DNA of 64,000 nt from assembly GCA_020628935.1 (NCBI GenBank), contig JAHDEG010000007.1:47878-111877 (forward strand), given 5' to 3'. The stretch's first letter is position 1, and every line of letters begins with the position of its first letter. The notes under the pieces are model-generated. The model was not told where the DNA came from, searched no databases, and saw only the letters and a program-made list of their open reading frames with translations. Shown piece by piece: positions 1,683 through 58,454 of the stretch. A program made the translations under genes and the position numbers. Source of the DNA: Flavobacteriales bacterium. Lineage in GTDB: Bacteria; Bacteroidota; Bacteroidia; Flavobacteriales_G; JALEGO01.

Positions 1683-3671
<1,989 letters not shown>

Positions 3672-3726
3672 ATAAATTGCAAAAAAAGCAACTTTTTGTG
3701 TCGTTTTAACGATTAAGGGGTAGGTT

Positions 3727-39705: not shown

Positions 39706-39862
39706 TTTCTTTTGTTTTTTAATTAATGTTTGGCAAAGATATAAAGTTATTTTGACAAAAAGCTTAAGCACTGCATTTAATTTTTTCAGTAATACAACAA
39801 ATAACTTGTTGGATTCAAAGTATTATTCTAATTTTAAAACTTAAATCTTAAAATTCGTTAAA

Positions 39863-40234
39863 ATGAAAAAAATTTCTCTTTTTGCAACACTTGTTATTGG
39901 AGCATTTGTAATTGCATCTTGTGGTGGTGTTGAAGAAAAATTAGATAACGCAGCTGAAAACGCTATGGAAAACGCTGAAAACGCTGCTGATGCTGTAGGT
40001 GACGCTGCCTCTAACGCAGGTGAAAGTGTTGCAGACGGTGCAGAGAGCATGTCTGACAAAGCTAGCGAGATGGCTAGTGAAGCTGGTGAATCATTAGAAG
40101 AGGCTGGTGAAAACATTGTTGAAGGAGCTGAAAACGCAGGTAATACTGTAAAAGAAGCTGGTTCAGATGCAATGGATAAAGCAGGTGATGCTTTAGATAA
40201 TGCTGGTGACAAGTTAAATGATGCTACTAAGTAA
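39863..40234 (+). CDS. Small acidic low-complexity lipoprotein (A/E/G/N/D-rich, helical-repeat-like)
   Basis: The lipoprotein signal is MKKISLFATLVIGAFVIASCGG. About 95 aa of degenerate xAG(E/D)xxxxA repeats follow. A strong terminator follows the gene. The antisense ORF 39841..40275 is a compositional mirror. Confidence 0.6.
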   Translation: MKKISLFATLVIGAFVIASCGGVEEKLDNAAENAMENAENAADAVGDAASNAGESVADGAESMSDKASEMASEAGESLEEAGENIVEGAENAGNTVKEAGSDAMDKAGDALDNAGDKLNDATK

Positions 40235-40263
40235 TTAAAGTTATCAATAATTTTATTGATTGA

Positions 40264-40298
40264 AGAGGTGAACAAAATTTGTTCACCTCTTTTTTTTT
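40264..40298 (+). terminator. Rho-independent terminator
   Basis: A 13-nt inverted repeat (agaggtgaacaaa / tttgttcacctct) is followed by T8. Confidence 0.85.
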
Positions 40299-42312: not shown

Positions 42313-42683
42313 ATTAAAATCAACCAATTCAATACCATATTTATATTTTGTAATTTCCTGCCATAAAATTAAACCATTGTGGCCCAGGCAGAACAATAAC
42401 AAAACAAGTCGCTCTTACTTCGCTAAAACTAAGCATGTAATTGAACACAAAAAATAGATTTTAAGCTAAAAAATCAATGAAAATTTAGTTTAAAAAACCA
42501 AAAACTATTAAATCTGAACTTTTTTTTAGTAAAACTAGCACACTAAAAAAAACATCGTTCCTCTTATTCTACGGGGCACTAAACGCACACCATCCTAGAT
42601 TTTAATTTTTGTATACCTAAAATTACCTATACCCAAGGTAATGGTATATGAGTAAATATATAGGAAACCACAAAACATTAATT

Positions 42684-43184
42684 ATGCAAAACACAGTATT
42701 TAAAAACATTTTCGTAGTAGACGATAACAAGCTTTTTTTGACAGGAGCAAAAGGATTTTTAGAGAAAAAGTTTAACACGCAAGTTAATTGTCACGAAACG
42801 CTAACTAGTTGTTTAGGCTCGCTTGATAAACAACCAGATTTAGTTTTTATGGATTATAATCTGAATAACAAAAATAAAAGCTTCAATGGTTTTTGGGCAG
42901 CTAAAAAAATCAGAAAAAAAATAAAAAACATTCCGATTGTTATGGTCTCAAACGAGAGAAAAGCATCAGCCATTGCTCGTTTTTTTAAAGGTGGCATAAC
43001 TGACTATATACCTAAAAGTTCAATTGTTTTAAGCGAAATGACCGATACAATTATGGAGTTAGAGGTTCAACAAAAACTGAATGAAATAAAAAAAACAGAG
43101 AATAAATTCTTTTTACTTGTAGTAACCGCTTTTCTAATTATTCCAATACTAGCTGTTCTATTTTATCAGCTGGTTTTGCAATAA
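42684..43184 (+). CDS. Receiver-domain protein with a C-terminal transmembrane tail anchor
   Basis: The receiver (REC) signature residues are present: FVVDDN, the acceptor DLVFMDYNL, VMVSNE and YIPKS. A single hydrophobic helix FFLLVVTAFLIIPILAVLFYQLVL sits at the extreme C-terminus. I prefer the start at 42684 (MQNTVFKN). Confidence 0.7.
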   Translation: MQNTVFKNIFVVDDNKLFLTGAKGFLEKKFNTQVNCHETLTSCLGSLDKQPDLVFMDYNLNNKNKSFNGFWAAKKIRKKIKNIPIVMVSNERKASAIARFFKGGITDYIPKSSIVLSEMTDTIMELEVQQKLNEIKKTENKFFLLVVTAFLIIPILAVLFYQLVLQ

Positions 43185-43277
43185 TTAATTAGAAAAAAAT
43201 ATAATCATACCTAATAATACATATTTACAAGCATCAACATATTAAATAATTTGATTACAGGACTAAAAACTAAAACT

Positions 43278-43853
43278 ATGAAAACAACAAACACAAAATT
43301 AAATTTATTAATACTTTTTATCATTTTAAATTTTAACGCATATTCACAAGAAAACTCTATTACACTTGTAAACTATGATCATGTTGAACTAAATCAAATA
43401 TCTGATTTTGAATTACTTACAGGTTACGGAATAGAACTCACACTAAATGAAAATGATGAACAAAAATTTGTAAATTATCAACTGCAAATTTTTGTTCAAA
43501 CCGATAAAAATGAATTAATTCCACTACAATTTAAAACCATTGCAAGTGATATTCATGAAAGATTAGGTACAGATAAATTATCATTGTGGTTTTCAAAAAA
43601 TTGGACTAAAAACCTGCCCAAAAACTTTTTACCTAGTGGAGTATTAGAAACATACTGGAATCAAAGTGACTTTAAAAAATTGAAAGTTGTTTGCTACGGA
43701 TCTAGCAAATATGAATATAAATCATTACCTAGCACATTAACTTTATCAGAATACAATAACGAAATGGCAAATAGTACCAGCAGGGAAATCGTTTATAGTC
43801 AAAATTTTAATATAACAACAAGTAATTTAACTGGGTATTGTTCTGAAGATTAA
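43278..43853 (+). CDS. Hypothetical secreted protein
   Basis: The ATG at 43278 gives the signal peptide MKTTNTKLNLLILFIILNFNAYSQ. No family is recognised. Confidence 0.45.
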   Translation: MKTTNTKLNLLILFIILNFNAYSQENSITLVNYDHVELNQISDFELLTGYGIELTLNENDEQKFVNYQLQIFVQTDKNELIPLQFKTIASDIHERLGTDKLSLWFSKNWTKNLPKNFLPSGVLETYWNQSDFKKLKVVCYGSSKYEYKSLPSTLTLSEYNNEMANSTSREIVYSQNFNITTSNLTGYCSED

Positions 43854-44221
43854 AGTTTTAGAGAGATATTTAACTCTACAGAAACATTTTTAAAGTAATT
43901 AAGTGTTTCATCAAGTAAAGATTTAAACTTAACAGTATTTATTTTTATATCTAAGTTTTGTAAAACCTGAATTTGTTCAACAAGCTTTGTAAAACCATAA
44001 CAACCTGCAGTGCCTTTTATTTGATGAAGTGAATGCTTAATTTGACTAGACCTTACTATTCCCTCATTAAAACTTTCGTAAACAAGTTTAAACTCATTTA
44101 ATAATTCAGCAAATAAATTAGGAAATAAGTCGTTAATATCTTCATCTTTTAAAAAACTTAAATTACTCATCTCAAAATGTGAATCAACTGCTTTTAAGTT
44201 AACTCGTACAGGTTTGTCCAT
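43850..44221 (-). CDS. Hpt (histidine phosphotransfer) domain protein
   Basis: The 123-aa helical protein has the Hpt motif HSLHQIKGTAGCYGF. Confidence 0.7.
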   Translation of the reverse strand: MDKPVRVNLKAVDSHFEMSNLSFLKDEDINDLFPNLFAELLNEFKLVYESFNEGIVRSSQIKHSLHQIKGTAGCYGFTKLVEQIQVLQNLDIKINTVKFKSLLDETLNYFKNVSVELNISLKL

Positions 44222-44286
44222 ATATAAGATTAAAAGTTAGTCTAAACTACTGAAACTAAATTATAAAATAGTATTTTGTTTCTATT

Positions 44287-44685
44287 ATGGGCACTCTCAA
44301 AATACTAATGATTGAAGATAACGAATTAATATTTAATCTTCTTGAGAAAAAAATCCTCAGACATAATCAATCTGATAACATGCAAGTACATTTAGAATCA
44401 TCTTTAAAAAGAGGTCACGAAAATTATCTTAAGAATAATTACAACGCTTTATTGTTAGATTTAAATTTACCTGATTCTTCTGGTTTTAACACACTAAAGC
44501 AAGCATTAAAACTATTTGACATACCCATTCTTGTTCTAAGTTCTATTGATAAAGATAATGATGTGGCGCTTGATTGCGTTAGAATAGGTGCTCAAGATTT
44601 TATTAGAAAAAAAGTGCTTTCACCAGAAGATATTTACCAAAGAATATTGTATGCAATTATAAGACACGAGAAAACGCAGAAATAA
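44287..44685 (+). CDS. Single-domain response regulator (REC only)
   Basis: REC signature residues: ILMIEDNE, the acceptor ALLLDLNLPDSSG, LVLSS and FIRKK. Confidence 0.85.
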   Translation: MGTLKILMIEDNELIFNLLEKKILRHNQSDNMQVHLESSLKRGHENYLKNNYNALLLDLNLPDSSGFNTLKQALKLFDIPILVLSSIDKDNDVALDCVRIGAQDFIRKKVLSPEDIYQRILYAIIRHEKTQK

Positions 44686-44721
44686 GTAATTAACAATAGC
44701 TCAATTTAAACTACAGCCTAC

Positions 44722-46641
44722 ATGAAAAATATTTTATTAGTTGATAATAGCGTTTCTGTACTTAATTACGTATCGGTTGTTATCGAAAAATTCTCTAATA
44801 ATGATTTTCAGGTTATAACTTCAGAAAAATATAATAATGCCATTAAGGTATTATCTGAAAAACACATTGACTTAATTCTGCTTGACTTAAACCTAGAAGA
44901 CTCTAACGGAGTTGAAACTTTCCATAAGCTAAGAAAACAAAATGGGTTAGTGCCAATAATAATACTAACCTCATCATCTGAAGAAGGTTTGTACTCCGAA
45001 ACATTAAAAATGGGAGCTCAAGACTTTATTAATAAAAGTGATCTAAACACTAATCCTCAAATGTTAATCAGGTCTATAAGATTTTCAATTGAACGCTTTA
45101 AATTTTCGAAGGAAAAAAGAATACTATCATCTATTGCTTCCAAAACATTTAACAACGTTTTAATTTTAAATAGAGAAGGTGAAATTCAATGGGTTAACGA
45201 TGCATTCGAAAAAAACTACGGGTACAAATTTGAGGAGATTAAAAATACTAAAGGAGAAATATTGAGAAAAGAATTGCCTCAATGGATAGCTAATAGCAAT
45301 ATATTAGAAAACTCTATTAAAGAAAATAAGCCCATACAATACGAACTCAAAAACTATCCTAAATACGGTGGATATTTTTGGTCATCTGTAACTATCTCTC
45401 CAGTTTTTGAAAACCCTAATAGTACTTTTTCTTACTTTATAGTAGTTGAATCGGACATCACAGAACGGGTTTTGTATGAAAGAAAGTTACAAAAAGCAAA
45501 AAATATAGCCATAAGAGCCAGAAAAGCGGAAGAGGAATTTATTGAAAATATAAGCCACGAAATAAGAACACCATTAAATGGAATTATAGGTTTAACTGAC
45601 CTAAGCCTTGAGCAAAATGATCTATCGCCAGACCAAAGGTTATCTCTGGAAAAAGTACTCTATTCTTCTAGATTTTTACTAAACATCATTGGGGATGTAT
45701 TAGATTTTTCTAAAATATCAAAAGGAAATATAGAGATTGAAAGCATCGAATTTGATCTTTTACAACTACTTGAGGAAATAAAACTATCTAATAGACTTGC
45801 TCTAAACAAAAACATGGAAGTAGAATTTATAACAGTGTTCTCTAATAAATTACCAGAAAAAATAATTGGTGATAGCACAAAAATCAAACAGATTATAGTT
45901 AATATACTTTCTAATGCATTTAAGTTTACTAATAGAGGATTTGTAAAAATGTCTGTTTGCCCAACTATGACAAAGGAAACTGAGTTTTTGAAAATTACAA
46001 TTGAAGATACTGGTATAGGTATTGAGGCTAGCAAACAGAATAAAATTTTTGAAAAATTTAAACAAGAAGATGTATCAACATCTCGAAAATATGGAGGTAC
46101 GGGTTTAGGGTTATCAATAGTAAAAAAACTAGTTACTTTGATGGATGGAAAATTAGTGCTAAGTAGCACTAAAACGAAAGGTACCAGGTTTGATATTTAT
46201 ATCCCCTTTAAACAAGGAAAAAAAATTATATTAGACAATGAAAAAACAGAGCAAGAACTTACAAATATTTTCAAATGTAAAAGTATTTTAGTAGCAGAGG
46301 ATAATCAAATCAATCAGTTATATATAAAAAACCTTTTCAAAAATTGGGGTGTAGAAATTTCTTGTGCAATTGACGGTCAAGAAGCTATTTCAATGGCAGA
46401 AGAAAAGTTGTATGATGTAATTTTAATGGATGTACAAATGCCAAATAAAGATGGATATGTAGCAACAAAAGAAATCAGAAAACTTAACTCACACTACGCA
46501 AACACTCACATAATAGCGTTAACTGCTTCTGCCAGCACGAAACAAAAACAGAAATGCTTAAAATCAGGTATGAACGATTATATGACAAAGCCATTTAAAA
46601 AAGAAGACCTCAAACGAAAACTAAACGAAATTTTTACTTAA
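44722..46641 (+). CDS. Hybrid sensor histidine kinase: REC-PAS-HisKA-HATPase-REC
   Basis: The N-terminal REC has ILLVDNS and LILLDLNLEDSNG. A PAS-like segment follows (NREGEIQWVNDAFEKNYGY). The H-box is ISHEIRTPLNGIIGL, the N-box NILSNAFKFT, and the G-boxes IEDTGIGI and GGTGLGLSIVKKL. The C-terminal REC has ILVAEDNQIN and VILMDVQMPNKDG. Confidence 0.9.
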   Translation: MKNILLVDNSVSVLNYVSVVIEKFSNNDFQVITSEKYNNAIKVLSEKHIDLILLDLNLEDSNGVETFHKLRKQNGLVPIIILTSSSEEGLYSETLKMGAQDFINKSDLNTNPQMLIRSIRFSIERFKFSKEKRILSSIASKTFNNVLILNREGEIQWVNDAFEKNYGYKFEEIKNTKGEILRKELPQWIANSNILENSIKENKPIQYELKNYPKYGGYFWSSVTISPVFENPNSTFSYFIVVESDITERVLYERKLQKAKNIAIRARKAEEEFIENISHEIRTPLNGIIGLTDLSLEQNDLSPDQRLSLEKVLYSSRFLLNIIGDVLDFSKISKGNIEIESIEFDLLQLLEEIKLSNRLALNKNMEVEFITVFSNKLPEKIIGDSTKIKQIIVNILSNAFKFTNRGFVKMSVCPTMTKETEFLKITIEDTGIGIEASKQNKIFEKFKQEDVSTSRKYGGTGLGLSIVKKLVTLMDGKLVLSSTKTKGTRFDIYIPFKQGKKIILDNEKTEQELTNIFKCKSILVAEDNQINQLYIKNLFKNWGVEISCAIDGQEAISMAEEKLYDVILMDVQMPNKDGYVATKEIRKLNSHYANTHIIALTASASTKQKQKCLKSGMNDYMTKPFKKEDLKRKLNEIFT

Positions 46642-46647
46642 GTAGAT

Positions 46648-46989
46648 ATGCTTTTTTTTAACCCTTCAAAAATTGATGAAATTTGCTCTGACGACAACGA
46701 GTTTAAGCAACAAATTATAAAAACTTATAACGAAGTTACCTTAGACTCTATAGAAAAAATTAAAAACGCTGTTATAAACGAACAAATAGATGATATAAAA
46801 TTTCATGCACATAAATTAAAATCAAGCTTCGATTTTTTAGGCGCAAAGTCACTTTCCTATAAGTGTATGAGGATAGAAAGTAACTGTATTAACAAAACAT
46901 TAACCCCAAATAACAAAACCGAAATTAATGATTTTATAATTCTGCTAGAAGATTCAATATATGAAATTAATTCATTAATTAACCAATAG
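46648..46989 (+). CDS. Hpt domain protein
   Basis: The 113-aa helical protein has the motif IKFHAHKLKSSFDFLGA (H-x-x-K-x-S...G). Confidence 0.7.
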   Translation: MLFFNPSKIDEICSDDNEFKQQIIKTYNEVTLDSIEKIKNAVINEQIDDIKFHAHKLKSSFDFLGAKSLSYKCMRIESNCINKTLTPNNKTEINDFIILLEDSIYEINSLINQ

Positions 46990-46998
46990 GATCTGCAA

Positions 46999-47655
46999 AT
47001 GAAAACAGTTAATATAATAATCGCTGACGACCACCAATTAATCATTGATGCTCTTAAAGCATATCTAGAAAAAACAGAGGATATTAATGTTATTGCTACA
47101 GCTAGTAATAGTGATCAACTTTTAAAGCTTGTAAATATGTACGCAAACAAACTTGATGTTATTTTACTCGATTATCATATGCCAACGATGAGTATAGATG
47201 ATCTATTGTTGAATATTAAAAAAATTGATAGTGAATTAAAAACCGTTATCTTATCCTCAGAAAAAAAGATAGAAAACATTATCACTGCACTTAACAATGA
47301 TGCTTTGGGGTATGTACTTAAGGATTGTGATAAAAAAGAAATTAAAGAAGCCATCCTTGCTGCAAAAAAAGCTAAAAACTATTTTTCGAGTGAAATCAAA
47401 ACCATTTTATCAAATAGTTTCATTCAAAACACAGGTGGTAAATCGCAAAACTACAAACTCCCTATATCGGATCGAGAATTAGAAATTTTAAATCTTACCA
47501 GTAATGGTTTAACTAACCACGAAATATCAGACGAATTAGGCATTAGTTTTAGAACTGTTGACACTCACAAAAGAAATATGCTAAAAAAAACTGGTGCTAA
47601 AAATATAACCCATCTAGTAAAACTTGCACTAAAGTTTAAAGAAATCAAAATATAA
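46999..47655 (+). CDS. NarL/LuxR-family response regulator (REC + LuxR-type HTH)
   Basis: The REC domain has IIIADDHQ and VILLDYHMP. The C-terminal LSDRELEILNLTSNGLTNHEISDELGISFRTVDTHKRNMLKK is a LuxR/GerE HTH. Confidence 0.9.
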   Translation: MKTVNIIIADDHQLIIDALKAYLEKTEDINVIATASNSDQLLKLVNMYANKLDVILLDYHMPTMSIDDLLLNIKKIDSELKTVILSSEKKIENIITALNNDALGYVLKDCDKKEIKEAILAAKKAKNYFSSEIKTILSNSFIQNTGGKSQNYKLPISDRELEILNLTSNGLTNHEISDELGISFRTVDTHKRNMLKKTGAKNITHLVKLALKFKEIKI

Positions 47656-47657
47656 CT

Positions 47658-48053
47658 ATGAAACTGAATACTATATTACTAATTGATGACTCTAAAAGCA
47701 CAAATAGTTTAAATGAGAAGCTCATATTAAAATCTGGGATTTGCAAAAAGGTTACCTCCTTCGAAAACCCTAAGCTAGCCATGGAATTTATAAATATTGA
47801 TAATATAAATTCCATAGATTTAATTCTAATTGATTTATTAATGCCTGAGCTTTCAGGAATTGATGTATTAAAAAACATTTCAGCCAAGTTTTCACAAGTA
47901 AAGAAAAAACCTATTTTAATTGTACTAACCGACAGTAAAGACACTGAGAAATATAATCTAGTTAAAGACTTTCTCGGGGCTGATGATTACATAAGAAAAC
48001 CACTAGATGAGGATGATTTATTAGAAATAATTGATCAACACTTCAGAAACTAA
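47658..48053 (+). CDS. Single-domain response regulator (REC only)
   Basis: REC signature residues: ILLIDDSKS, the acceptor LILIDLLMPELSG, IVLTDS and YIRKP. Confidence 0.85.
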   Translation: MKLNTILLIDDSKSTNSLNEKLILKSGICKKVTSFENPKLAMEFINIDNINSIDLILIDLLMPELSGIDVLKNISAKFSQVKKKPILIVLTDSKDTEKYNLVKDFLGADDYIRKPLDEDDLLEIIDQHFRN

Positions 48054-48062
48054 GAAGTCATA

Positions 48063-50663
48063 ATGAAAAAACCATCAGAAATTGAAAGAGTAAGAGACTT
48101 AATCTCTTATCAAATTTTAGACACTGAATCAAACTCAGAATTTGACGAATTGGTAGATCTTGCTTCAGTTATTTGTGATGTACCGATGGCACTTGTTAGC
48201 TTACTCGATGATAAAAGACAGTGGTTTAAAGCTAAAAAAGGAATTGAAGTTCAAGAAACAGACAAAGAAATATCATTTTGCAAACATGCAATTCTAAGTG
48301 ATGAAATTTATGAAATAAATGATGCTCGAAACAATGACTTATTTAAAAACAACCCCCTTGTAACTCAAGAAACGAACCTCAGATTTTATGCAGGAGTTCC
48401 TTTGATAAATAAAAATGGAAATGCCTTAGGTACTGTTTGTGTTTTAGATAACAAACCAAAAGTACTGAATGAGTCTCAAAAGAAAGCCCTCAAAATAATA
48501 GGCAACCAGGTATTACTACTAATCGAAAAGCATAAAAAAGAGCTAGACTTTGATATTTATAAAAACTTTTTTGACAATACATCAAACTTACTTTGCATAC
48601 TGGACGAAAAAGAAAAATTTGAATTTGTAAATGATCACTTCACCTCTTCTTTAGGCTGGAAATTAAACGACATTTCAGCAATGCAATTCAATGACCTAGT
48701 TGATGAAAAAACAAATTTTGATTTTAATATTAAAAATTCTAATTCTAAAAAAACATCATTTAAAACAAGGTTTAAATCTTCAAAAGGAAATTGGGAGTAT
48801 GTAATTTGGAACGGCTTTTACACAAAGTCAAAACTATTATACCTAACAGGACAAAATGTTACTAAACGAGAAAAATTAGAAAATGAAAAAGCACTTATTT
48901 TAGATACTAGCCAAGATATTATCTGCACAGGTGATAAAAACGGGCGCTTTTTAAGCTCCAACGCAGCTATGAAAGCCATATTAGGCTATGATATTGAAGA
49001 TATTATTGGTCAAAAATGGAATAACTTTATTCTTGACGAAGACTTAAGTGTTGCTCAACAGTTTTTTGAAAGGCTTGTAGAATACAAGCAACCAGTAAAT
49101 AATGTAGAATTGAGATTTATTGATAAAAATAAATCCTTGAAAACAATATCTTGGAGTGCGACTTGGAATGAATTACAAAACCATTTCTTCGCCTTCGGTA
49201 GAGACATTACCTCAACCATTGATGCAGTAAGAGAAAGAGATAAACTATTCAAAAACTCTACAGATGTTATAATTGTAGCTACTGAACGTGGAGATATAGA
49301 AAGTACAAACCCAGCATTTCAAGAGTTAATCGGATATAGTGAAACAGAAATTAATGCTACAAACCTTTTTGATATTGTTAGTAAGCAAGATCAAAAAGTT
49401 CTTTCTGATGCAATTGCAAGCATGAAGCGTGGTATTAAAACAGATCAGCTTATTATTAATTTCACATCCAAAGACAATAAAACAGTAACGTTATCTATTA
49501 ACGCTTATATTGACTCTCAGTCGAAAAAATTCTTTTGTGTGGCAAGAGATGTAACATCCTCCGAAAAACAAAAACTTGATTTGATTGAAACCAACGCGAG
49601 GCTAAAAGCAATAACTGAGGCATTACCAGATGCTGCTTTCGTACTTAATAAAAATGGAAAATACATTGATGTAATAGTTAATAACGCTGATGTACTTGTT
49701 AAAAAAACAAGGTTTCTAATTGGCAAAACAATCAAAGAAGTAATGCCAGAAGAATCATGGCGACCAATTCAAGATGTAATTGATAAGTGCATTTCAGAAA
49801 ATAAAGTCCAAGAAATTGAATATACTGTCCCAATTAATGGAACCTTAAACTGGTTTGTTGGCCGGTGTGCGAAAATGTATACTAGTGATAACGAATTAGA
49901 CGCTGTCGTATGGATTGCTTACAACATAGAAAACATTAAACAGAGGGAACGTAAACTAGAAAAGCAAAAAATTATCATTGAAAAATACTCTAAAGAACTA
50001 GAACAGTTTGCTTACATAACAACGCACGATATTAAGGCACCAATCGATAATATTGAAGGCTATCTAGAACTTTTGAAAATGGATATTGAGCCTACAAATA
50101 CCGATGCGCTAAACAGCATCAATTGGATTGACCAGAGCGTTTTAGACACAAAAAGAATACTCTCAGACTTAACATATTCGCTAAAATTAGGAGAGGCCAA
50201 GAAAAAAAACTTTACAAAAATTAATCTTCAACAACTCGTTGATAGCATACTAAATAACCACTCTCACGAGATAACTACCCAAGGCATAGTAATTGGAGTT
50301 GATTTTCATGAGTGCGAAACTATTGAATATGATAAATCTGGTTTAAGAAGTATCTTAGATAACTTAATTTCAAATGCAATTAAATACAGAGATACCAATA
50401 GTGTTTCTGAACTAAAAATTAGTAGCACAAAGGCAAACAACAATATTGTATTATCTGTATCAGATAATGGATTAGGAATTAATCTCGAACAAGATAAAGA
50501 AAAATTGGAAGGATTGTTTCAAAGAATTAGCCAGAACATACCAGGCTCTGGAATGGGTATTTACATAATTAATAAAATACTCGAAAATTATGGAGGATCA
50601 CTAGAAGTTCAAAGTGAAGTAGGTGTAGGATCAACGTTTAAAATAGTACTCACTAATAATTAA
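48063..50663 (+). CDS. Cytoplasmic GAF-multiPAS sensor histidine kinase
   Basis: There is no TM segment. The N-terminal GAF domain reads ERVRDLISYQILDTESNSEFDELVDLASVICDVPMALVSLLDDKRQWFKAKKG...RFYAGVPL. About 475 aa follow with several PAS-like units. The H-box is ITTHDIKAPIDNIEGY, the N-box LISNAIKY, and the G-boxes VSDNGLGI and GSGMGIYI. Confidence 0.88.
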   Translation: MKKPSEIERVRDLISYQILDTESNSEFDELVDLASVICDVPMALVSLLDDKRQWFKAKKGIEVQETDKEISFCKHAILSDEIYEINDARNNDLFKNNPLVTQETNLRFYAGVPLINKNGNALGTVCVLDNKPKVLNESQKKALKIIGNQVLLLIEKHKKELDFDIYKNFFDNTSNLLCILDEKEKFEFVNDHFTSSLGWKLNDISAMQFNDLVDEKTNFDFNIKNSNSKKTSFKTRFKSSKGNWEYVIWNGFYTKSKLLYLTGQNVTKREKLENEKALILDTSQDIICTGDKNGRFLSSNAAMKAILGYDIEDIIGQKWNNFILDEDLSVAQQFFERLVEYKQPVNNVELRFIDKNKSLKTISWSATWNELQNHFFAFGRDITSTIDAVRERDKLFKNSTDVIIVATERGDIESTNPAFQELIGYSETEINATNLFDIVSKQDQKVLSDAIASMKRGIKTDQLIINFTSKDNKTVTLSINAYIDSQSKKFFCVARDVTSSEKQKLDLIETNARLKAITEALPDAAFVLNKNGKYIDVIVNNADVLVKKTRFLIGKTIKEVMPEESWRPIQDVIDKCISENKVQEIEYTVPINGTLNWFVGRCAKMYTSDNELDAVVWIAYNIENIKQRERKLEKQKIIIEKYSKELEQFAYITTHDIKAPIDNIEGYLELLKMDIEPTNTDALNSINWIDQSVLDTKRILSDLTYSLKLGEAKKKNFTKINLQQLVDSILNNHSHEITTQGIVIGVDFHECETIEYDKSGLRSILDNLISNAIKYRDTNSVSELKISSTKANNNIVLSVSDNGLGINLEQDKEKLEGLFQRISQNIPGSGMGIYIINKILENYGGSLEVQSEVGVGSTFKIVLTNN

Positions 50664-50667
50664 CAAA

Positions 50668-51045
50668 ATGAAAAAAATTGACTCAGCATTGATTATTGAC
50701 GATAGCCCAGCATTTATTAATTTGGTGAAAAAATATCTTCAAAAATTTAATTTGTGTGATACTTTTTTCGAGGCTACTAATGGAAAAGATGCACTAAGTT
50801 ATTTTAAGAAAGATAAGCTCCCGTCAGTAGTGTTTTTAGATATTAACATGCCCATTATGAATGGTTTTGATGTACTCGAAACACTTTCTTCAGAAAATAA
50901 AGATTACAGCTCATCTCATATTGTTATGATGTCATCATCCGTTTACAAGGAAGATATAAAACGTTCAAAAACGTTTCCTAATGTATCTTACTTTACTAAA
51001 CCTATAAACATTCAAAAAATAGAAGAAATTTGGAAAAAACTTTAA
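50668..51045 (+). CDS. Single-domain response regulator (REC only)
   Basis: REC signature residues: ALIIDDSPA, the acceptor VVFLDINMPIMNG, VMMSSS and YFTKP. Confidence 0.85.
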   Translation: MKKIDSALIIDDSPAFINLVKKYLQKFNLCDTFFEATNGKDALSYFKKDKLPSVVFLDINMPIMNGFDVLETLSSENKDYSSSHIVMMSSSVYKEDIKRSKTFPNVSYFTKPINIQKIEEIWKKL

Positions 51046-51053
51046 TAAAAATT

Positions 51054-51359
51054 ATGAAAATGGAAAAAAACAAAACTCAAGAACCAACTAATATTTCAAA
51101 ACTCGATGCAGTAAAAGAGCTGATTTTTGGTCAAAATATGCAAGAGTATGATCAAAAATTTGAAACGATTGAGCAATTAATAGATCAGAAATTTAAGCAA
51201 CTCACAGAACAACTAAATACATTAGAAAAAGCTAATAATTTAAACCTAGACCAAGCTAAATCTGAACTAAACAATAAGCTAGATCAACTATCAAATGATA
51301 AGTTAGATCGTTCAAAATTAGCCAATCTGCTTAGGTCTCTTGCAGATAAAATTGAATAA
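51054..51359 (+). CDS. Small coiled-coil protein (101 aa), unknown family
   Basis: It is K/E/Q/L/N-rich with heptad-like spacing (QKFETIEQLIDQKFKQLTEQLNTLEKANNLNLDQAKSELNNKLDQL). I prefer the ATG at 51054 over the TTG at 51030, which overlaps the upstream REC gene. Confidence 0.5.
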   Translation: MKMEKNKTQEPTNISKLDAVKELIFGQNMQEYDQKFETIEQLIDQKFKQLTEQLNTLEKANNLNLDQAKSELNNKLDQLSNDKLDRSKLANLLRSLADKIE

Positions 51360-52114
51360 TGATGAGTTCAACAGATCCATTTGAAGAACTTAAATCTATA
51401 ATCTTACAAGAAGAGCGAAAAAAAAATAATGCAATAACAGAAGATTTAAAAAATAAGCTACTCGATAAAATAAATAAGATAGAAAATGAATTAAATGACC
51501 CTAACAAATTTTCTACTAAAATTGAAGGCTCAAAAAATCAGATCATTGATGTTTTAGGCCCGGTAATGGGTAGGATGATTAAAAAATACATAGCTACCGA
51601 AATCGCAAAGCTAAATGATAACATTAGTTCACAAACCAATAAATTAACCTCCGCTCAATATTGGAAAGAGAAAATTTTCAAAAATAAGAAAACAGATATC
51701 ACTAAAATTAATCAACCAGAAATTGAAGAAATTTTAATGATTAATAAAGAGAGTGGTTTGCTTCTTGGTTGCTATATAAATAATGAACGATTAGATAAGG
51801 ATATGATAGCAGGCATGCTAACAGCGATTAAAGCATTCATGGAAGATACCTTCTCTAATAAAGCTCAAGAAGTTGGGTTTATTGAGTACAGCGACTACGG
51901 CATACTGCTTCACAGCCTTGGTTCATACTACTATTCAGTAGTGTTTTCTGGGAGGAAAAGTAAGCAATTTGAAGAGTTTATAATTAAAGAATTAAACACA
52001 TTCTCAGAAACACAGGTAGGTAATATAAATAAAAACAATAATGAAAACTTCAATGATAAAATGAAGTTATATTTTGAAAATACATGCAAGAAATTAAAAG
52101 AAAAATTGTTCTAA
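51359..52114 (+). CDS. Coiled-coil protein with a C-terminal Roadblock/LC7-like (longin-like) domain, putative GTPase partner
   Basis: The start overlaps the upstream stop (TAATG). The N-terminal ~110 aa are helical and charged. The C-terminal IEEILMINKESGLLLGCYINNERLDKDMIAGMLTAIKAFMEDTF...VGFIEYSDYGILLHSLGSYYYSVVFSGRKS...FEEFIIKEL follows the strand-strand-helix-strand-strand-strand-helix order expected for a Roadblock fold. This was judged by eye only. Confidence 0.45.
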   Translation: MMSSTDPFEELKSIILQEERKKNNAITEDLKNKLLDKINKIENELNDPNKFSTKIEGSKNQIIDVLGPVMGRMIKKYIATEIAKLNDNISSQTNKLTSAQYWKEKIFKNKKTDITKINQPEIEEILMINKESGLLLGCYINNERLDKDMIAGMLTAIKAFMEDTFSNKAQEVGFIEYSDYGILLHSLGSYYYSVVFSGRKSKQFEEFIIKELNTFSETQVGNINKNNNENFNDKMKLYFENTCKKLKEKLF

Positions 52115-52548
52115 TAGGTTGTAAAGGCGTTGGTAAAACATCTTTAATTAAAAAATTTGTACACAATCACTTTGATGAGAAGTATTTAAGTACCATTGGA
52201 GTTAAAGTAGACAAAAAAGAGGTTGTCATTGGAGATAATAACATATCACTTATATTGTGGGATGTTGCCGGAGAGCTACTAAACGATAGAATGTTATCCT
52301 CTTACACACTTGGAGCTCACGCTATTGTATATGTGCACGATCTAACAAGACCTGAAAGCTTCAATACCTGCTTGAGCACACTAGAAAAAATTAAGTGTGA
52401 TAAAAAAATAATAGTGGGAAATAAAACTGATTTAATTACTGCTAACAATAATAATTTTAGCACCAAATCCGATTACACAACAAGTGCGAAATCTGGTGAA
52501 GGAGTTGAAAAACTATTTCTAGAAATTGCTGAAAGCTCAATTAATTAA
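52084..52548 (+). CDS. Ras-superfamily (Rab-like) small GTPase
   Basis: G1 is LIGCKGVGKTS, switch I YLSTIGVKV, G3 LWDVAGE, G4 VGNKTDL and G5 TSAKSGEGVEKLF. The 154-aa product has no C-terminal Cys. The start overlaps the upstream gene by 31 nt. Confidence 0.85.
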   Translation: MQEIKRKIVLIGCKGVGKTSLIKKFVHNHFDEKYLSTIGVKVDKKEVVIGDNNISLILWDVAGELLNDRMLSSYTLGAHAIVYVHDLTRPESFNTCLSTLEKIKCDKKIIVGNKTDLITANNNNFSTKSDYTTSAKSGEGVEKLFLEIAESSIN

Positions 52549-52637
52549 ACTCACTGATCATAAGTAAGTTTCAATATGAATTAGTGAGTTAATAAATATT
52601 TTGAACATCCCACTCCCTTAATGACTTAACTACAAAA

Positions 52638-55130
52638 TTACTTGACTATCAAAAAGTGAAAATCCATTAGTGATGGATCTATGGATGAACCAGAAGGATT
52701 AAATAACTTTACTGTTACGAGGTCAGCAGACGATACATACGTTTGAGCAACAATTAAATTACCTAAGCTACCATTCGGAGAAACCGACACCGCAGAGCCA
52801 ATTTCGGCACCTGCAACAGTAAATGATTGTGTAAAAACTATTCCCGGATTAATACTAGGTACATCGCCTGCCACACTAACTTTTAGTATAGTTTGCAACT
52901 CACTACCGTTATCACCAACTTTTAATGTTCCATTATCTTTAATTGTAACATCACCATTTGTTACTAGGTCACCTGTAGCACCGTTAATTACTAATAGTGT
53001 ATCACCAACATTCACATTTTCATTAATATTTAGTGGACCATTAGATATAATTGAGTCAGTAAACGTTGAAACACCTAAAACAGAAATATTAGCATTATTT
53101 ATTACATCGCTCGAATTAGTTACAACACCAGTATTAGAAACTGTTCCGAAATTAGACACGGCATCGAAGTTAGAAACCACTCCAAAATTAGAAACTGCGT
53201 CAAATGTATTTACAGGAGATGAAAAACTGGCCGATTGAGAAAAAGTAGCTGTTGAATTTACTGAAAAAGAATTGCCTGACCCCGAACCAAATGAAGCATC
53301 TTCATTCACTGAAATACTAGATGCGCTGAATGAACCCGCGCTAAATGTATTTGCATTTAAGACATTAACATCAATGGTATCTATATCAGCTACATCAGCA
53401 TTTATATAATTGGTTATAGTGCTATCTAAATAACCTACATCAGAAGCTATAATTGAGGATTGTATAGTATCTGATACTATATTTTGAGCCTCTACATAAA
53501 CAGGAGTAATCGAGTCAGGATCAAAATCAAAATTGGTTGAATTAAATTCTAAATAATTTGCATAAATTGTATCTGAAGTAATTTGTTGAGCGGCAACATT
53601 ATCTACTTCCAACTCATCAACTCTAGCGGTATCAACTTCTAAAACCTCAACTGTAATTGAATCTGTCACAACCATGTTTGTAGTTATCCAATTTGAATTT
53701 ATCATATCAATAGTTGCATTTTGAGCATCTAATTCTTCAGTCTCTAACCAATTTGAAGCAATAGAATCAGCGCCTAATATGTTTGTTTCAATAGAATCAG
53801 AAACCAGCGCATCAATACTTGCTTGTGGAGCCTCAAACATATCAGCATAAAGCCAAACAGCATCTAACTCATTTGCACTTATTGTATTTACATTAATCGA
53901 ATCTGAAACTAGAACTACTGTGTTAATAGTGTCAGAAGTTAAGTTAGAAATGGTTCCTTGCTCAGAACTTAACATATTAGCATCTAACCAAACGGCATCT
54001 AACTCTCCTACTTCCAAAATATCAGTTTGAATAGAATCTGATGTTAATTCTGTTATTTCTCCCTGAGAAGAACTTAGCATATTGGCATTTAACCAAACTG
54101 CATCTAACTCGTTTACATTTAAAACATTAGTCTCTATAGAATCTGCAACTATGGTGTCAGCCAATAAAGAATTTACACTCCCCATTGAACCAACAAACTC
54201 ATCTGCTGAAATCCAGTTTACAGATAATGAGTCTACACCCAAAGAAATAACATTAAGAGAGTCGGCATTAATAACATTAAAAAATGATGTATTTGCATTT
54301 ATGTATGACATTGTAGCACTATCTCCATTTAGGTTAAGAACATCTATATGATCAGCATTTATAGAATCGGCTGATAAAAGCTCAGCTTCATAGTCTGCAG
54401 CACGTATACTTTGTGCCGTAATTGAATCAAAAGTTGCCGTTTCGCCTTCTAATTCAAAAATATAAGACGAAATTGCGTTTACAACTTCGGTAGATAAAGT
54501 ATCTGCAGTAATTGTTGTTGCAGATACAATTGTAACATTTACAGTATCTGATTCAATAACCCCAGCGACTATTTCATCAACACTAATAGTGCTAGAACCA
54601 GCCCAAATTCCGTTATTAAACGTAAGCAAGTTACCGTTTTGTATGTTGCTCGTATCTACGTCTAACAAATTACTAAGTGTAATGTATTCAATACCTGTAT
54701 TTAATGCCGTATCTGCTACCATCGCGTAAGGTACAGTTAACAATTGTGAAGTACCTACATCTTCCATTCCACTTGCAAAATCGACTTTTACATTTAAAAA
54801 ATGATCTGCAGTTCCCCAATCAATATCCTCAAAAGTAAAAGCAGAACCTGCTCCAGTGTTGGTGCCTGTTCCTATTACCACATTTAACAAGCCGTGGCTG
54901 TTGGTAGTAGTAATAAAGTTCTCTTGCCAAGCAACAGAGCCGTTAACACCACCTTCTAAAATATTCATTTGAATTAATAGGGTTCTATTAGGCTGAATTT
55001 CACCATCAGAGTCTCTTATAATACCTTGGTAGCTTATTCCGCTAGGTACTTGTGAGTATCCATTGTTTGTGATAGCTATAAATGCTACAAAAATTACGCT
55101 AAATAAAACTTTATTTAAAATTGTTCTCAT
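52638..55130 (-). CDS. Secreted fibre-like repeat protein (830 aa) with no recognisable T9SS sorting domain
   Basis: The ATG at 55130 gives the signal peptide MRTILNKVLFSVIFVAFIAITNNGYSQ. The N-domain is ISYQGIIRDSDGEIQPNRTLLIQMNILEGG..WQENF.TTTNSHGLLNVVIGTG. The central ~450 aa consist of degenerate (S/A)D(S/T)I-type short repeats, with three ELDAVWL(N/D/Y)A(N/D)M copies. The C-terminus has none of the type-A or type-B tail motifs seen in neighbouring genes. Confidence 0.6.
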   Translation of the reverse strand: MRTILNKVLFSVIFVAFIAITNNGYSQVPSGISYQGIIRDSDGEIQPNRTLLIQMNILEGGVNGSVAWQENFITTTNSHGLLNVVIGTGTNTGAGSAFTFEDIDWGTADHFLNVKVDFASGMEDVGTSQLLTVPYAMVADTALNTGIEYITLSNLLDVDTSNIQNGNLLTFNNGIWAGSSTISVDEIVAGVIESDTVNVTIVSATTITADTLSTEVVNAISSYIFELEGETATFDSITAQSIRAADYEAELLSADSINADHIDVLNLNGDSATMSYINANTSFFNVINADSLNVISLGVDSLSVNWISADEFVGSMGSVNSLLADTIVADSIETNVLNVNELDAVWLNANMLSSSQGEITELTSDSIQTDILEVGELDAVWLDANMLSSEQGTISNLTSDTINTVVLVSDSINVNTISANELDAVWLYADMFEAPQASIDALVSDSIETNILGADSIASNWLETEELDAQNATIDMINSNWITTNMVVTDSITVEVLEVDTARVDELEVDNVAAQQITSDTIYANYLEFNSTNFDFDPDSITPVYVEAQNIVSDTIQSSIIASDVGYLDSTITNYINADVADIDTIDVNVLNANTFSAGSFSASSISVNEDASFGSGSGNSFSVNSTATFSQSASFSSPVNTFDAVSNFGVVSNFDAVSNFGTVSNTGVVTNSSDVINNANISVLGVSTFTDSIISNGPLNINENVNVGDTLLVINGATGDLVTNGDVTIKDNGTLKVGDNGSELQTILKVSVAGDVPSINPGIVFTQSFTVAGAEIGSAVSVSPNGSLGNLIVAQTYVSSADLVTVKLFNPSGSSIDPSLMDFHFLIVK
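53113..53202. repeat. Five imperfect tandem copies of an 18-bp unit inside the 830-aa gene
   Basis: The units start at 53113, 53131, 53149, 53167 and 53185, with consensus rAAtTTAGAaACnnnnyCr. On the coding strand they give the hexapeptide repeats DAVSNF/GVVSNF/DAVSNF/GTVSNT/GVVTNS. Confidence 0.7.
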
Positions 55131-55163
55131 AATAATTAACAATTGAAGTGGGGACTAATTTTT

Positions 55164-56582
55164 TTATTCGTGTAGATATAACCAAGCATCACCAAAACCA
55201 GATGCCTTAACTCTATCTAATTCTTTTAATGCGGAAGGCAGATTTCCTAATTTTTCGAGATATATATAATAATACCCTCTCTTTTTATTAAATACCAACA
55301 ATGGGTTATACCCTTTAGCTCTTATTTTTTCTTGTTCCTCACTAGCAAAATCTTTGTTTAGGAAGGATTTAACGACAATATAATATCCTTTTTCTAGCTC
55401 ATCTAAACTCGCTAGTTCGGTGTTTATGGCTCCTGATTTAAATTCATCCGTTAAACCATCGTTGGCGTCATTACTCTGGTTACTTTTTGCAGAGTTATTT
55501 TCTGCAGCGGAATTAGCTGCTATTTCCATCTCTTTTAGCTTTTGCTCGTATGTGCTTTTTAATTCTTCATTCGCCTGTTTTTCCTTCTTAAGGTTTGAGT
55601 TTAAGCTGTCAAGTTTTGTATTTAGGGTAACCGACTCCATTTCTAACTTCATTTTTTCTTGCTCTAAGGATTTATCCTTCACACCAATCGAAAATCCTGC
55701 AAAAACCTCGTGTGTGCTCGTTGCATAGTTATAAATATCTTCTCCAAAACCATGATCATATGAGTAGCCAATTAAAAACGATTCTTTTATTTTTATGCCA
55801 AGAGTGCCAATTACAGAGCTATTATTTCTGTAAACTGCCCCAAGATTAACTATGTTTTTCCAATTTAAAACCGCTCCAAAATCTAATGAAACAGGAGTAT
55901 TTGCAATTAATCGTGCAACAACAACTGGTTTTAACCAAAAAACTTCTTCTTTTAAATTAAAATTATAAGAACTGTTCAACACAAAATGAGGCATTGAAGC
56001 TAATGAGTATTTTAAAGTCCCATTTTCAACATCAACTGGTGACTGCAATAAATTAAAGGCTCCCACGCCCAATTGAAACTCACTAAATGAGTATTTTAAG
56101 CCAACATTTGCATCAATAGCAGCTCCTCTGAATTGAGTATTAGAAACTAAAACTTGATCTGAATAATCAGCAACATCTATTAAAGAAGCGTTAATTTTAT
56201 TTTCTCTGTAAATTCCTTCTAAACCAAAATCCAGAGCATGCTTGTCAGTTAGTGCTACATGATAGGCATATGATAAACGTGCGTTAAAGTTTTCTAGAAC
56301 TCCATATTGCTCTGTATTAACAACAGTACCCAAAGCCATGTTGTTAGCTATTTTACCTCTTAAAGATAAATACTTAATAGTTGGTGAGTTAGAAAGATTA
56401 AGCCACTGTTTGCGGTAACCCAAAACTCCACTAACGCCTTCACCATAAGCACCTGCAGGACTAATATAATAATCGTTAAAAAGATACTGATTTGACAAAG
56501 ACAACGATTGCGATAGAGCAACCCCACTTGAAATCAGTAAAATGGCAAGGATATAAATTTTATTCATTTGCTTTATATTCAT
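55164..56582 (-). CDS. T9SS PorP/SprF-family outer-membrane protein fused to a coiled-coil linker and a C-terminal SPOR (peptidoglycan-binding) domain
   Basis: The signal peptide is followed by LSLSNQYLFNDYYISPAGAYGE...GYRKQWLNLSNSPT, the PorP/SprF N-terminal signature, within a ~300-aa beta-barrel-like region. A K/E-rich helix follows (EQEKMKLEMESVTLNTKLDSLNSNLKKEKQANEELK). The SPOR-like end reads GYYIVVKSFLNKDFASEEQEKIRAKGYNPLLVFNKKRGYYYIYLEKLGNLPSALKELDRVKASGFGDAWLYL. Confidence 0.75.
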   Translation of the reverse strand: MNIKQMNKIYILAILLISSGVALSQSLSLSNQYLFNDYYISPAGAYGEGVSGVLGYRKQWLNLSNSPTIKYLSLRGKIANNMALGTVVNTEQYGVLENFNARLSYAYHVALTDKHALDFGLEGIYRENKINASLIDVADYSDQVLVSNTQFRGAAIDANVGLKYSFSEFQLGVGAFNLLQSPVDVENGTLKYSLASMPHFVLNSSYNFNLKEEVFWLKPVVVARLIANTPVSLDFGAVLNWKNIVNLGAVYRNNSSVIGTLGIKIKESFLIGYSYDHGFGEDIYNYATSTHEVFAGFSIGVKDKSLEQEKMKLEMESVTLNTKLDSLNSNLKKEKQANEELKSTYEQKLKEMEIAANSAAENNSAKSNQSNDANDGLTDEFKSGAINTELASLDELEKGYYIVVKSFLNKDFASEEQEKIRAKGYNPLLVFNKKRGYYYIYLEKLGNLPSALKELDRVKASGFGDAWLYLHE

Positions 56583-57844
56583 CTGAGTAAGGTTATTGTG
56601 CCCGAAAAAGAACTCTCTTCACTATCACACTGAATGGTGAAATAGTAAGTATCGTTAGGTAAAACTTCACCATTTCGTGTTCCTTCCCAGTCATTTTTAT
56701 AATCGGCACTTTCATAAACAATATTACCTACCTGATTAAATACTGTTAGCGGACATCCTGTAAAGAAAGGTAAGTTTCTGATAGTAAACGCGTCATTAAC
56801 ATTGTCATTATTTGGTGTGATAAGATTAGTATAGTCAATAAAGTAATTGTCATAAACCAATACGTTAATTGTCGCAGTAGTCTCGCAACCCAAAGCACTT
56901 GTGCCAGTAACCGAATAAGTTGTTGTTTCGGTAGGATTAATAACTACTTCACTTAAAGTTGTTGATGAAACTGTTTCAGAAGGAGACCAAACATAAGAAT
57001 TTGCACCACTAGCAGAAAGTGAAATGGTTTCTCCTGCTACCAATGAAGTATCACTAGTTACACTAAGTTGTGGGCTAGCTTCTTGAGATAAAATAATACT
57101 ATCACGGTTAGCACAGCCATTCGTATTATTAACAAGAATATAATAAAGACCAGAATCAATAACAGTAATTGAATTCGAAGATTGACCTGTAGACCAAAAA
57201 AACGTACCAGTTGTAATTGCAGTTAAGGTAACGTTTCCATTGTCACATAAAACTGAATCGCCCGAAACTACAATTTCTGCTTGAGGCGCAGCAAATATCT
57301 GAAGTGGTTTTTGAACTGTATCTGAACAAAAATTGTCTGACGTAACCAGTTTTACACTATAGTTATTTGCAGTTGAGTAAATATGTACTGGTGATTCTTC
57401 TATAGAAACATCACCATCATTAAAATCCCAAACATAAGATAAACTGTCTCCCTCGGGATCACTACTTAAATTATTAAAATTTACATTACTCCCTTCACAA
57501 CCATTTACAACTGCAAAATCTGCATTTGGCAAGCTTCTTAAAACAACCGCGCGGTATACTACTGAAGTATCAGGTATATCAGAAATAACTTGTATCCCTA
57601 CATTCATAGCCATTAAAGATGTTAACTCAACCGCTATTGAGTTTCCAGTAGCGTCTGAAAAATCTCCATCTCCATTAACATCCCAATTAACAGCAGTGAT
57701 ATTTGCTGTACTAGTAGAAGTTGACGTTAACTGACTTGTAGCACCAGTACAAACCGTATCAGAAATAAAACTGGCTACTGTTTGTGATTTAGCGCTAAAC
57801 GCAGAGAGAAAGGAAAATAAAAAAGATAAAATTACTAATCTCAT
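56579..57844 (-). CDS. PKD-domain protein with a T9SS type-B C-terminal sorting domain
   Basis: It has a signal peptide and the PKD motif YVWDFNDGDVSIEESPVHIYSTANNYSVKL. The C-terminus is NLITPNNDNVNDAFTIRNL...LTVFNQVGNIVYE...DWEGTRNGEVLPNDTYYF. The stop overlaps the PorP/SprF start (ATGA). Confidence 0.85.
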   Translation of the reverse strand: MRLVILSFLFSFLSAFSAKSQTVASFISDTVCTGATSQLTSTSTSTANITAVNWDVNGDGDFSDATGNSIAVELTSLMAMNVGIQVISDIPDTSVVYRAVVLRSLPNADFAVVNGCEGSNVNFNNLSSDPEGDSLSYVWDFNDGDVSIEESPVHIYSTANNYSVKLVTSDNFCSDTVQKPLQIFAAPQAEIVVSGDSVLCDNGNVTLTAITTGTFFWSTGQSSNSITVIDSGLYYILVNNTNGCANRDSIILSQEASPQLSVTSDTSLVAGETISLSASGANSYVWSPSETVSSTTLSEVVINPTETTTYSVTGTSALGCETTATINVLVYDNYFIDYTNLITPNNDNVNDAFTIRNLPFFTGCPLTVFNQVGNIVYESADYKNDWEGTRNGEVLPNDTYYFTIQCDSEESSFSGTITLLR

Positions 57845-57847
57845 ATA

Positions 57848-58363: not shown

Positions 58364-58454
58364 ATTAAACAACATTGCTATTTTTAATTGTAAATCACAA
58401 GAACATCTTTAAAAAAAGTGAACAACACATTGTGAATAGCCACACTTAAAACAA

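Follow-up and report, generated by a model that had tools for sequence, protein, structure and literature searches.

No other bacterial proteins resemble eukaryotic Rab, Ras and Rho as closely as the Group 1 Rup GTPases do, and none of these GTPases had been characterised experimentally by 2014 (PMC4316618). No later experimental study of these GTPases was found in our literature searches. Their gene neighbourhood was described computationally by Wuichet and Sogaard-Andersen (2014; PMC4316618). Its members are a GTPase of Rab/Ras type that lacks the glutamine of G3, a coiled-coil partner, another protein whose conserved domain is of unknown kind and is often followed by a transmembrane (TM) segment and OmpA, and an output protein, either a kinase or a GGDEF/EAL protein, which has an N-terminal domain with an invariant Gln. 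The subject of this article is a 13-gene, 10.3-kb block (positions 42313 to 52637) within a 64,000-nucleotide stretch from a Flavobacteriales bacterium (contig JAHDEG010000007.1, positions 47,878 to 111,877), the whole of which is referred to here as the window. The block lies in the chromosome of a Bacteroidota bacterium that has a type IX secretion system (T9SS) and SprB-type proteins, and it holds a Rup triad preceded by an array of two-component genes with seven receiver (REC) domains. Taken alone, such a receiver-rich relay is ordinary, if extreme; its joining to a Rup module without the canonical kinase is new.

With the Group 1 Rup neighbourhood the block shares a GTPase lacking the G3 Gln, an upstream coiled-coil protein, a member of the protein family here called X, and His-Asp signalling genes nearby. 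The differences are that the window lacks the fourth gene, which elsewhere comes after the GTPase and encodes an output protein (kinase or GGDEF/EAL) bearing the invariant-Gln domain at its N-terminus, that eight two-component genes lie upstream, none with this domain, and that X is short and soluble. A partly similar set of components is found in the conservons (CvnA-D) or actinobacterial G protein systems, whose wiring is still poorly understood (PMC13343842, PMC13621833) and which likewise combine a kinase, a Roadblock-fold protein, a small partner and a Ras-like GTPase. However, their GTPase is of the MglA family (Group 2), their kinase is membrane-bound and without a receiver/histidine phosphotransfer (Hpt) relay, a DUF742 protein that resembles guanine nucleotide exchange factors (GEFs) is present, and they belong to Actinomycetota, whereas this Bacteroidota locus has a Rab-like Rup GTPase and soluble kinases, with neither DUF742 nor a Robl_LC7 match. 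In Myxococcus xanthus, the targets of the receiver proteins FrzX, FrzZ and RomR are MglB (Roadblock) and MglA (GTPase) (PMC10329633, PMC3441718). This Frz-FrzX/FrzZ/RomR-MglA/MglB module, with its output-less receiver proteins acting on a small GTPase and a Roadblock GTPase-activating protein (GAP), would by analogy resemble the model proposed below. It differs in having MglA in place of a Rup GTPase and a CheA-type chemosensory Frz system in place of HisKA kinases with PAS and GAF domains; its polarity genes do not form one operon, and the system in the window is known from its genes alone.

The Rup triad and its missing kinase

The array of two-component genes continues past REC125 into three further genes, cc, X251 and Rup154 (Table 1). 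From 44287 to 52548, ten genes on the same strand follow one another with internal gaps of 2–36 bp or overlaps, and no terminator-like site was found on the array strand over this span. Of the signals scanned for, only this absence was used, a sigma-70 promoter scan not being meaningful for Bacteroidota. An Rfam scan of 42–53 kb gave no RNA family. Rup154 has the motifs GCKGVGKT (G1), WDVAGE without the catalytic Gln (G3), NKTD (G4) and SAK (G5), with WDIAGE or WDLAGE at G3 in its relatives, and its best PDB matches are Rab1A and Rab6. It is 38–40% identical to the GTPases of three Rup loci (L075, L078, L079), in which the gene upstream of X is 35–43% identical to cc. A home-made hidden Markov model (HMM) of cc matches this position in ~70 loci, and homologs of both cc and X occur in at least 80 loci. 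By its homologies, the triad at 51054–52548 is assigned to the Group 1 Rup modules.

For X251, 166 homologs were found in a 90%-clustered database, and 4788 cluster representatives at E<=1e-3. No Pfam domain was present among homologs of the short form and X251 itself gave no match to Pfam Robl_LC7; long members of the family carry BON and OmpA. An AlphaFold2 (AF2) model built from a 40-sequence alignment had a mean predicted local distance difference test (pLDDT) score of 68.8, with C-terminal blocks at 84–93, and a secondary-structure order of H-E-E-H-E-E-E-H for residues 114–222. Using Foldseek, the C-terminal half was matched to MglB (6hjm, E 2e-4, TM-score 0.55–0.59), with further matches to LAMTOR/Ragulator subunits, the Sec22b longin and an Asgard Roadblock protein. 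The sole match of the sequence profile was to the AP-4 sigma longin (E 0.075), and one Joint Genome Institute (JGI) annotation of a family member hints at Roadblock. Judging from the model, X251 probably serves the GTPase as a partner of Roadblock/longin type. In the 2014 survey no MglB coupling was counted for Rup (PMC4316618); a Roadblock/longin reading of the Rup partner, which that survey did not make, would be a new point on an uncharacterised system.

To compare the triad with others of its kind, the contexts of X homologs and 80 metagenomic loci were annotated with home-made HMMs. The gene order in these is fixed (cc, X, GTPase, hybrid kinase). Where at least 2.5 kb of sequence was available after the GTPase gene (50 loci), a kinase core with REC, with or without Hpt, directly follows the GTPase in 45; three have the N-terminal domain of this kinase on another protein and two, the window and L117, have nothing. 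The usual Rup-linked kinase has the architecture N-terminal Q..N domain-HisKA-HATPase-REC, with or without Hpt, and the Q..N is invariant in all 46 Rup-linked kinases. No such N-terminal domain was detected in the six frames of the 64-kb window with HMMs built from 5 and from 46 sequences or with tblastn, and a 'DIT...Q...KN' stretch in HyHK639 was rejected as a candidate for having the wrong spacing. In the window, the gene after Rup154 is a convergent T9SS cargo gene. The region upstream of X could be compared in the 35 loci with at least 8 kb there: 32 have no REC, one has a single REC and one has three, against seven in the window. A relay upstream of a Rup module without the dedicated kinase is unique among 89 loci. 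Since Rup triads elsewhere nearly always have their own kinase and this one does not, a tie between relay and GTPase is plausible. We propose that they form one signalling system, in which the multi-gene relay would substitute for the missing dedicated kinase and feed both the NarL-type regulator and the Rup switch, a reading that we judge to be about evenly poised between right and wrong.

A number of other features were seen in the Rup loci. The N-terminal domain of the Rup-linked kinases, comprising their first ~140 residues (L078, L081–L162), goes undetected by Pfam and ends in 'D-x-T-x-H-Y ... Q-x-[RK]-N-E-S', a stretch similar to what comes after PAS domains, namely a D-I/V-T cap and a signalling helix; judging by this similarity, the domain could be PAS-like, though divergent. 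It is found on a protein without a kinase core in L075, L151 and L154. Two tandem GTPase genes, or duplications of GTPase and N-terminal domain, occur in L113, L117, L125, L131, L132 and L142, and L117 has two GTPases and no kinase. In loci of Roseivirga type (L078, L081 and L082, at about 8950–9650) a TM-anchored PG_binding_1 protein precedes cc and may replace the OmpA tail that X has in other lineages; no gene for a TM-anchored PG_binding_1 protein precedes cc in the window.

Table 1. Features of the signalling block and of its surroundings, in window positions.
Feature	Position	Strand	Description
REC_TM178	42648..43184 (alternative start 42684)	+	Receiver with C-terminal TM tail; Response_reg 55.8 bits; phospho-Asp D69
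sec200	43251..43853	+	200 aa, signal-like N-terminus; lies between REC_TM178 and HptA; no Pfam or NCBIfam match
HptA123	43850..44221	-	Probable Hpt, His66 in HQIKGT; divergent from main array
REC132	44287..44685	+	Single-domain response regulator, D58; Pfam 51.7 bits; opens the ten-gene array
HyHK639	44722..46641	+	Soluble hybrid kinase, REC (D55, DN pocket)-PAS-HisKA (H279)-HATPase-REC (D570)
In-frame TAA	46639..46641	+	Sole stop between HyHK639 and HptB113; two codons and ATG follow
HptB113	46648..46989	+	Hpt, His55 in HKLKSS; Pfam Hpt (PF01627) 32.4 bits; NCBIfam match to TorS Hpt region
NarL218	46999..47655	+	REC (D58) and GerE/LuxR helix-turn-helix; Response_reg 69.5 bits, GerE 63.4 bits
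REC131	47658..48053	+	Single-domain response regulator, D59; Pfam 62 bits
GAFHK866	48063..50663	+	Soluble kinase, GAF-4xPAS-HisKA (H655)-HATPase
REC125	50668..51045	+	Single-domain response regulator, D58; Pfam 69.6 bits; ends 8 bp before Rup module
cc	51054..51359	+	Coiled-coil-type Group 1 Rup partner by homology; listed open reading frame (ORF) starts at TTG 51030, ATG 51054 fits homologs
X251	51359..52114	+	N-terminal helical region and C-terminal Roadblock/longin-like domain (~114-250); short soluble form without BON/OmpA tail
Rup154	52084..52548	+	Rab/Ras-like small GTPase, 154 aa; Pfam Ras 99 bits
T9SS cargo operon	52638-58375	-	Convergent, facing the Rup gene
SprB-repeat proteins	3727-7029, 7691-12025, 22672-26781		Three very large proteins; sorting domains of CHU_C or Por_Secre_tail type
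Lipoprotein-like ORF	39841-40275	-	123 aa, low-complexity, Ala/Glu/Asn-rich
'Shadow' ORF	39863-40234	+	Antisense, fully overlapping the lipoprotein-like ORF

The phosphorelay upstream of the triad

Between 42.6 and 51.0 kb, a span that includes one non-signalling gene (sec200), seven REC domains were identified in six proteins, all above the gathering score of Pfam Response_reg (PF00072; 51.7–161 bits, cut-off 30.2). An initial annotation, made by reading the sequence, had listed the same seven REC domains, a tail-anchored receiver, one NarL-type regulator, two HisKA/HATPase cores, two Hpt proteins with one on the opposite strand, and two cytoplasmic kinases with PAS and GAF sensors and no TM segment. 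Pfam and hydropathy analysis recovered every one of these, with the HisKA of GAFHK866 and the probable Hpt of HptA123 lying marginally below their cut-offs (26.5 against 26.9 bits and 23.8 against 24.6 bits, respectively). The annotation had allowed that several of its REC domains might lack the conserved Asp and Lys, but on alignment to CheY all seven keep the equivalents of D57 and K109 without exception. T/S87 and Y/F106 are also present throughout, and the acidic pair D12/D13 appears as DD or ED in six of the receivers and as DN in the N-terminal REC of HyHK639. In the hydropathy scan, a TM segment was found only in REC_TM178, at about residues 153–176 (Kyte-Doolittle maximum 3.03, residues 154–172). 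Mutual identity among the receivers is only 15–29%, and they are therefore not recent duplicates produced by local amplification. By inspection, the FATGUY-type motif of intermediate receivers (PMC9981736) is absent from all seven, which is not decisive.

As a background for REC density, 74 loci of ~20 kb anchored by a hybrid kinase were obtained by scanning a genome collection with HyHK639. Most of these have one or two REC domains and the maximum is six; seven within 8.4 kb is the extreme of the sampled loci, though REC-rich clusters do occur.

The gene sec200 adjoins both the tail-anchored receiver and the Hpt gene on the minus strand, and its product is a possible extracytoplasmic partner; whether it belongs to the system is uncertain.

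Of the two kinases, HyHK639 has clear HisKA (60.4 bits) and HATPase_c (94.3 bits) domains and a core 40–45% identical to those of Bacteroidota histidine kinases (HK) of the HK-REC-Hpt type. In GAFHK866 the HATPase_c domain scores 69.1 bits and the H-box THDIKAP is present within the marginal HisKA. The sensor domains of the two are unrelated to each other. HptA123 has, in addition to its Pfam score, NCBIfam matches to the Hpt/P1 regions of kinases; a single-sequence AF2 model of it was too poor (pLDDT 46.8) and was discarded.

Reading the sequence directly, it was found that HyHK639 and HptB113 lie in the identical frame. The product of reading through the stop between them is colinear, over residues 245–711, with HK-REC-Hpt kinases that are single polypeptides (in L001, L003, L048 and L062), and it aligns over its full length with the 797-aa REC-PAS-HisKA-HATPase-REC-Hpt kinase of L062. 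Because of the shared frame and this colinearity, HptB113 is taken to be an Hpt domain that has become separated from an unorthodox kinase of the order REC-PAS-HK-REC-Hpt. The TAA that ends the kinase before the Hpt is either a genuine fission of such a gene or a sequencing or assembly error. HyHK639 and HptB113 would accordingly be expected to work like an unorthodox kinase, though one divided between two proteins, provided that the stop is no sequencing error. They match the ArcB, BarA and TorS type of kinase in domain order, but differ in that the Hpt is a separate 113-aa protein set off by an in-frame stop and in the additional N-terminal receiver with a DN pocket that precedes the PAS domain of HyHK639. 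Identity to single-polypeptide kinases of this kind is 37–38% over residues 245–711, and identity to the kinase of L062 is 28% over the full length. In both the window and L062 a receiver gene comes next; in L062, however, the kinase is coupled to a CheB methylesterase and here to a NarL regulator. The L062 locus, from a metagenome-assembled genome of Hyphomicrobiales, encodes in order (440–4319) CheB (REC and methylesterase), the REC-PAS-HisKA-HATPase-REC-Hpt kinase and a single REC.

With NarL218, which holds the sole DNA-binding output among the proteins of the array, HyHK639 and HptB113 have the architecture of a textbook four-step relay. The presence of a hybrid kinase, Hpt proteins and a NarL regulator implies a multi-step His-Asp-His-Asp relay in place of simple pairs, as the initial annotation had proposed; its other suggestion, a phosphate sink, finds no sequence support in either direction. 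In such a circuit the REC-only proteins would mainly drain phosphoryl groups by back-transfer through Hpt, thereby sharpening or ending the signal to NarL218; they would lack targets of their own, and the GTPase module would be irrelevant. Four receivers without an output domain and two Hpt proteins able, in principle, to carry the reverse transfer fit this explanation, and examples of phosphate sinks are on record from Che-like relays that include hybrid kinases (PMC3868531). However, all the REC-only proteins keep the switch residues T/S87 and Y/F106, as is typical of receivers that signal through a conformational change, the membrane anchor of one of them suggests a localised function, and four distant sinks for a single output would be an unusual redundancy. 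Behaviour as a sink is, moreover, unreadable from sequence, and we consider this explanation unlikely. The annotation had also noted that most receivers lack an output domain, which is true of four REC-only proteins; it had overlooked the Rup GTPase module downstream on the same strand.

Proposed coupling of the relay to the GTPase

In a single system of relay and triad, cytoplasmic signals received by the PAS and GAF domains would lead to autophosphorylation at H279 of HyHK639 and H655 of GAFHK866. Along the hybrid arm the phosphoryl group would pass from H279 to D570, then to H55 of HptB and to D58 of NarL218, with an effect on transcription. By analogy, NarL218 would play the role of the DNA-binding regulators encoded after Rup-linked HK-REC-Hpt genes at other loci, which are NtrC-like in L095 and L096 and of LytTR type in L127 and L128. 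The two kinases would be cross-connected at branch points, namely the four REC-only proteins and the receiver at the N-terminus of HyHK639. Because the REC-only proteins have no output domain, they would act on protein partners, most likely the X/Rup switch; once phosphorylated, they might alter where this switch is located or how X works as a GAP or GEF. The coupling could run from relay to GTPase or from GTPase to relay. In a more specific form of this proposal, the relay replaces the dedicated Rup kinase in split and enlarged form; its REC-only proteins would bind X or the GTPase in a phosphorylation-dependent manner, and the relay would set the nucleotide state or location of the GTPase switch. 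We put this form forward tentatively and regard it as rather doubtful.

A number of observations weigh against one system of this kind. The N-terminal domain that presumably couples kinase and GTPase is missing from every protein of the window, and the dedicated Rup kinase may be encoded elsewhere in the genome, outside the 64 kb examined. HyHK639 is 44–47% identical to generic hybrid kinases and ~40% to Rup-linked ones, with no sign of an origin from the latter. The arrangement is a one-off, other Rup loci having three or fewer REC domains upstream. Co-transcription of the array is deduced from gene spacing alone, and the Roadblock assignment of X251 comes from one AF2 model and Foldseek E-values near 1e-4. 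No orthologous relay cluster was found in the databases searched, so that co-evolution of relay and triad cannot be shown, and their joint presence or absence amounts to a single event, seen against a relative with which the protein identity is 75%. Derivation of a kinase, REC or Hpt of the window from Rup-linked kinases was considered and set aside as evidence, the similarity being no better than to generic kinases. Among the REC sets compared, REC131 was matched best by the REC of Rup-linked kinases, but at 32% this match was too weak and was also rejected as evidence.

These observations bear on the possibility that adjacent but independent circuits are encoded here: the HyHK-HptB-NarL relay, a CheY-like circuit of REC131, GAFHK and REC125, a fragment with REC_TM178 and HptA, and the Rup triad as a separate entity. 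The Rup kinase would then be located elsewhere or be lost, and the adjacency would reflect the accumulation of signalling genes in variable regions. The absent coupling domain, the uniqueness of the arrangement and the grouping of HyHK639 with generic hybrid kinases all agree with this, as do the mutual distance of the receivers, the unrelated sensor domains of the two kinases and the Rup module of L117, which is likewise without an adjacent kinase. Against it, the ten genes share a strand, are at most 36 bp apart and show no terminator-like site on that strand, and an unlinked Rup module is the exception, kinase and receiver being linked in 45 of the 50 modules. Compared with the nearest relative, the relay and triad were also acquired or lost as one, and with five receivers and two kinases not all can be one-to-one pairs. 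Independent circuits are, in our estimation, a possible explanation that we would not expect to hold.

The locus is a natural dissection of the Rup system, in which separate proteins serve as kinase, as intermediate receiver, as Hpt and as terminal regulators; as these are small and soluble, phosphotransfer profiling and tests of binding to the GTPase module are feasible. If X is truly of Roadblock/longin type, Rup would join MglA/MglB, the conservons and Rag/Ragulator as a design of GTPase plus Roadblock, with a bearing on the age of this pairing. If the relay is indeed a split replacement of the Rup kinase, a His-Asp relay would control a Rab-type switch in a gliding, T9SS-bearing member of the Bacteroidota, and the closest bacterial relatives of Rab and Ras would already be paired with a Roadblock/longin regulator. 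If relay and GTPase are unrelated neighbours, the locus is a two-component cluster that is unusual in its wealth of receivers and ordinary in all else.

Genomic setting of the block

The nearest relative is L163, in which the E1 dehydrogenase (E1dh), whose gene adjoins the block in the window, is 75% identical and is followed, after ~200 bp, by convergent homologs of surf834 (36%) and PorP/SprF (52%), two genes of the cargo operon described below. Relay and Rup triad are jointly absent from this syntenic site, as one 10.3-kb insertion/deletion difference. From the sequences compared, this shows that the two travelled together once, and does not imply long-term conservation as a unit. Conservation of the signalling genes as a block, which the initial annotation had named as a check on its proposal, was not borne out: no orthologous cluster was found in the databases searched, and the nearest relative is without the entire block. 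In GTDB species genomes HyHK639 has only paralogs, at 74 loci and with identities of 45% or less, and homologs of Hpt, Rup or X were found at none of these 74. Among 5.8 billion proteins GAFHK866 has no ortholog, only partial matches of 31–39% identity. The lineage is poorly sampled, since even the best relative of the housekeeping E1 dehydrogenase is only 75% identical.

The GC content of the block at 42313–52637 is 0.294, compared with 0.328 and 0.334 in the flanks, and no tRNA, integrase, or direct or inverted flanking repeats were found around it. A further explanation is that the block is a decaying accessory island, an AT-rich insert recently acquired or eroding, with the internal stop and the lost Rup kinase as signs of degradation. 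The low GC content and the absence of the block from the nearest relative are compatible with this, as are the in-frame TAA between REC and Hpt and the missing canonical fourth Rup gene. However, all 13 ORFs are intact and the catalytic His, Asp, Lys and G-box residues are preserved, HptB has its own ATG two codons past the stop, and free-standing Hpt proteins are a normal design. Nor were kinase remnants found, and the lack of an integrase, tRNA or flanking repeats again speaks against an island. We consider decay very unlikely.

Markers in the window (gyrB, bshC, ftsY and three SprB-repeat/CHU_C adhesins) identify it as chromosomal Bacteroidota DNA. The three SprB-repeat proteins look like gliding-type adhesins, and to judge from them the organism is probably a glider. 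The T9SS cargo operon that faces the Rup gene encodes an 834-aa repeat-rich exported protein without a Pfam domain (surf834), a PorP/SprF protein with a C-terminal SPOR fusion (472 aa), a PKD and CHU_C protein (421 aa) and a Por_Secre_tail protein (175 aa). The initial annotation had pointed to a flanking surface-protein operon when suggesting gliding and T9SS phenotypes; this context is real, while the link of the operon to the relay is one of adjacency only. On the other side of the block, the lipoprotein-like ORF on the minus strand gave weak matches of apolipoprotein type, and in another locus, L164, a small gene is similarly placed before E1dh.

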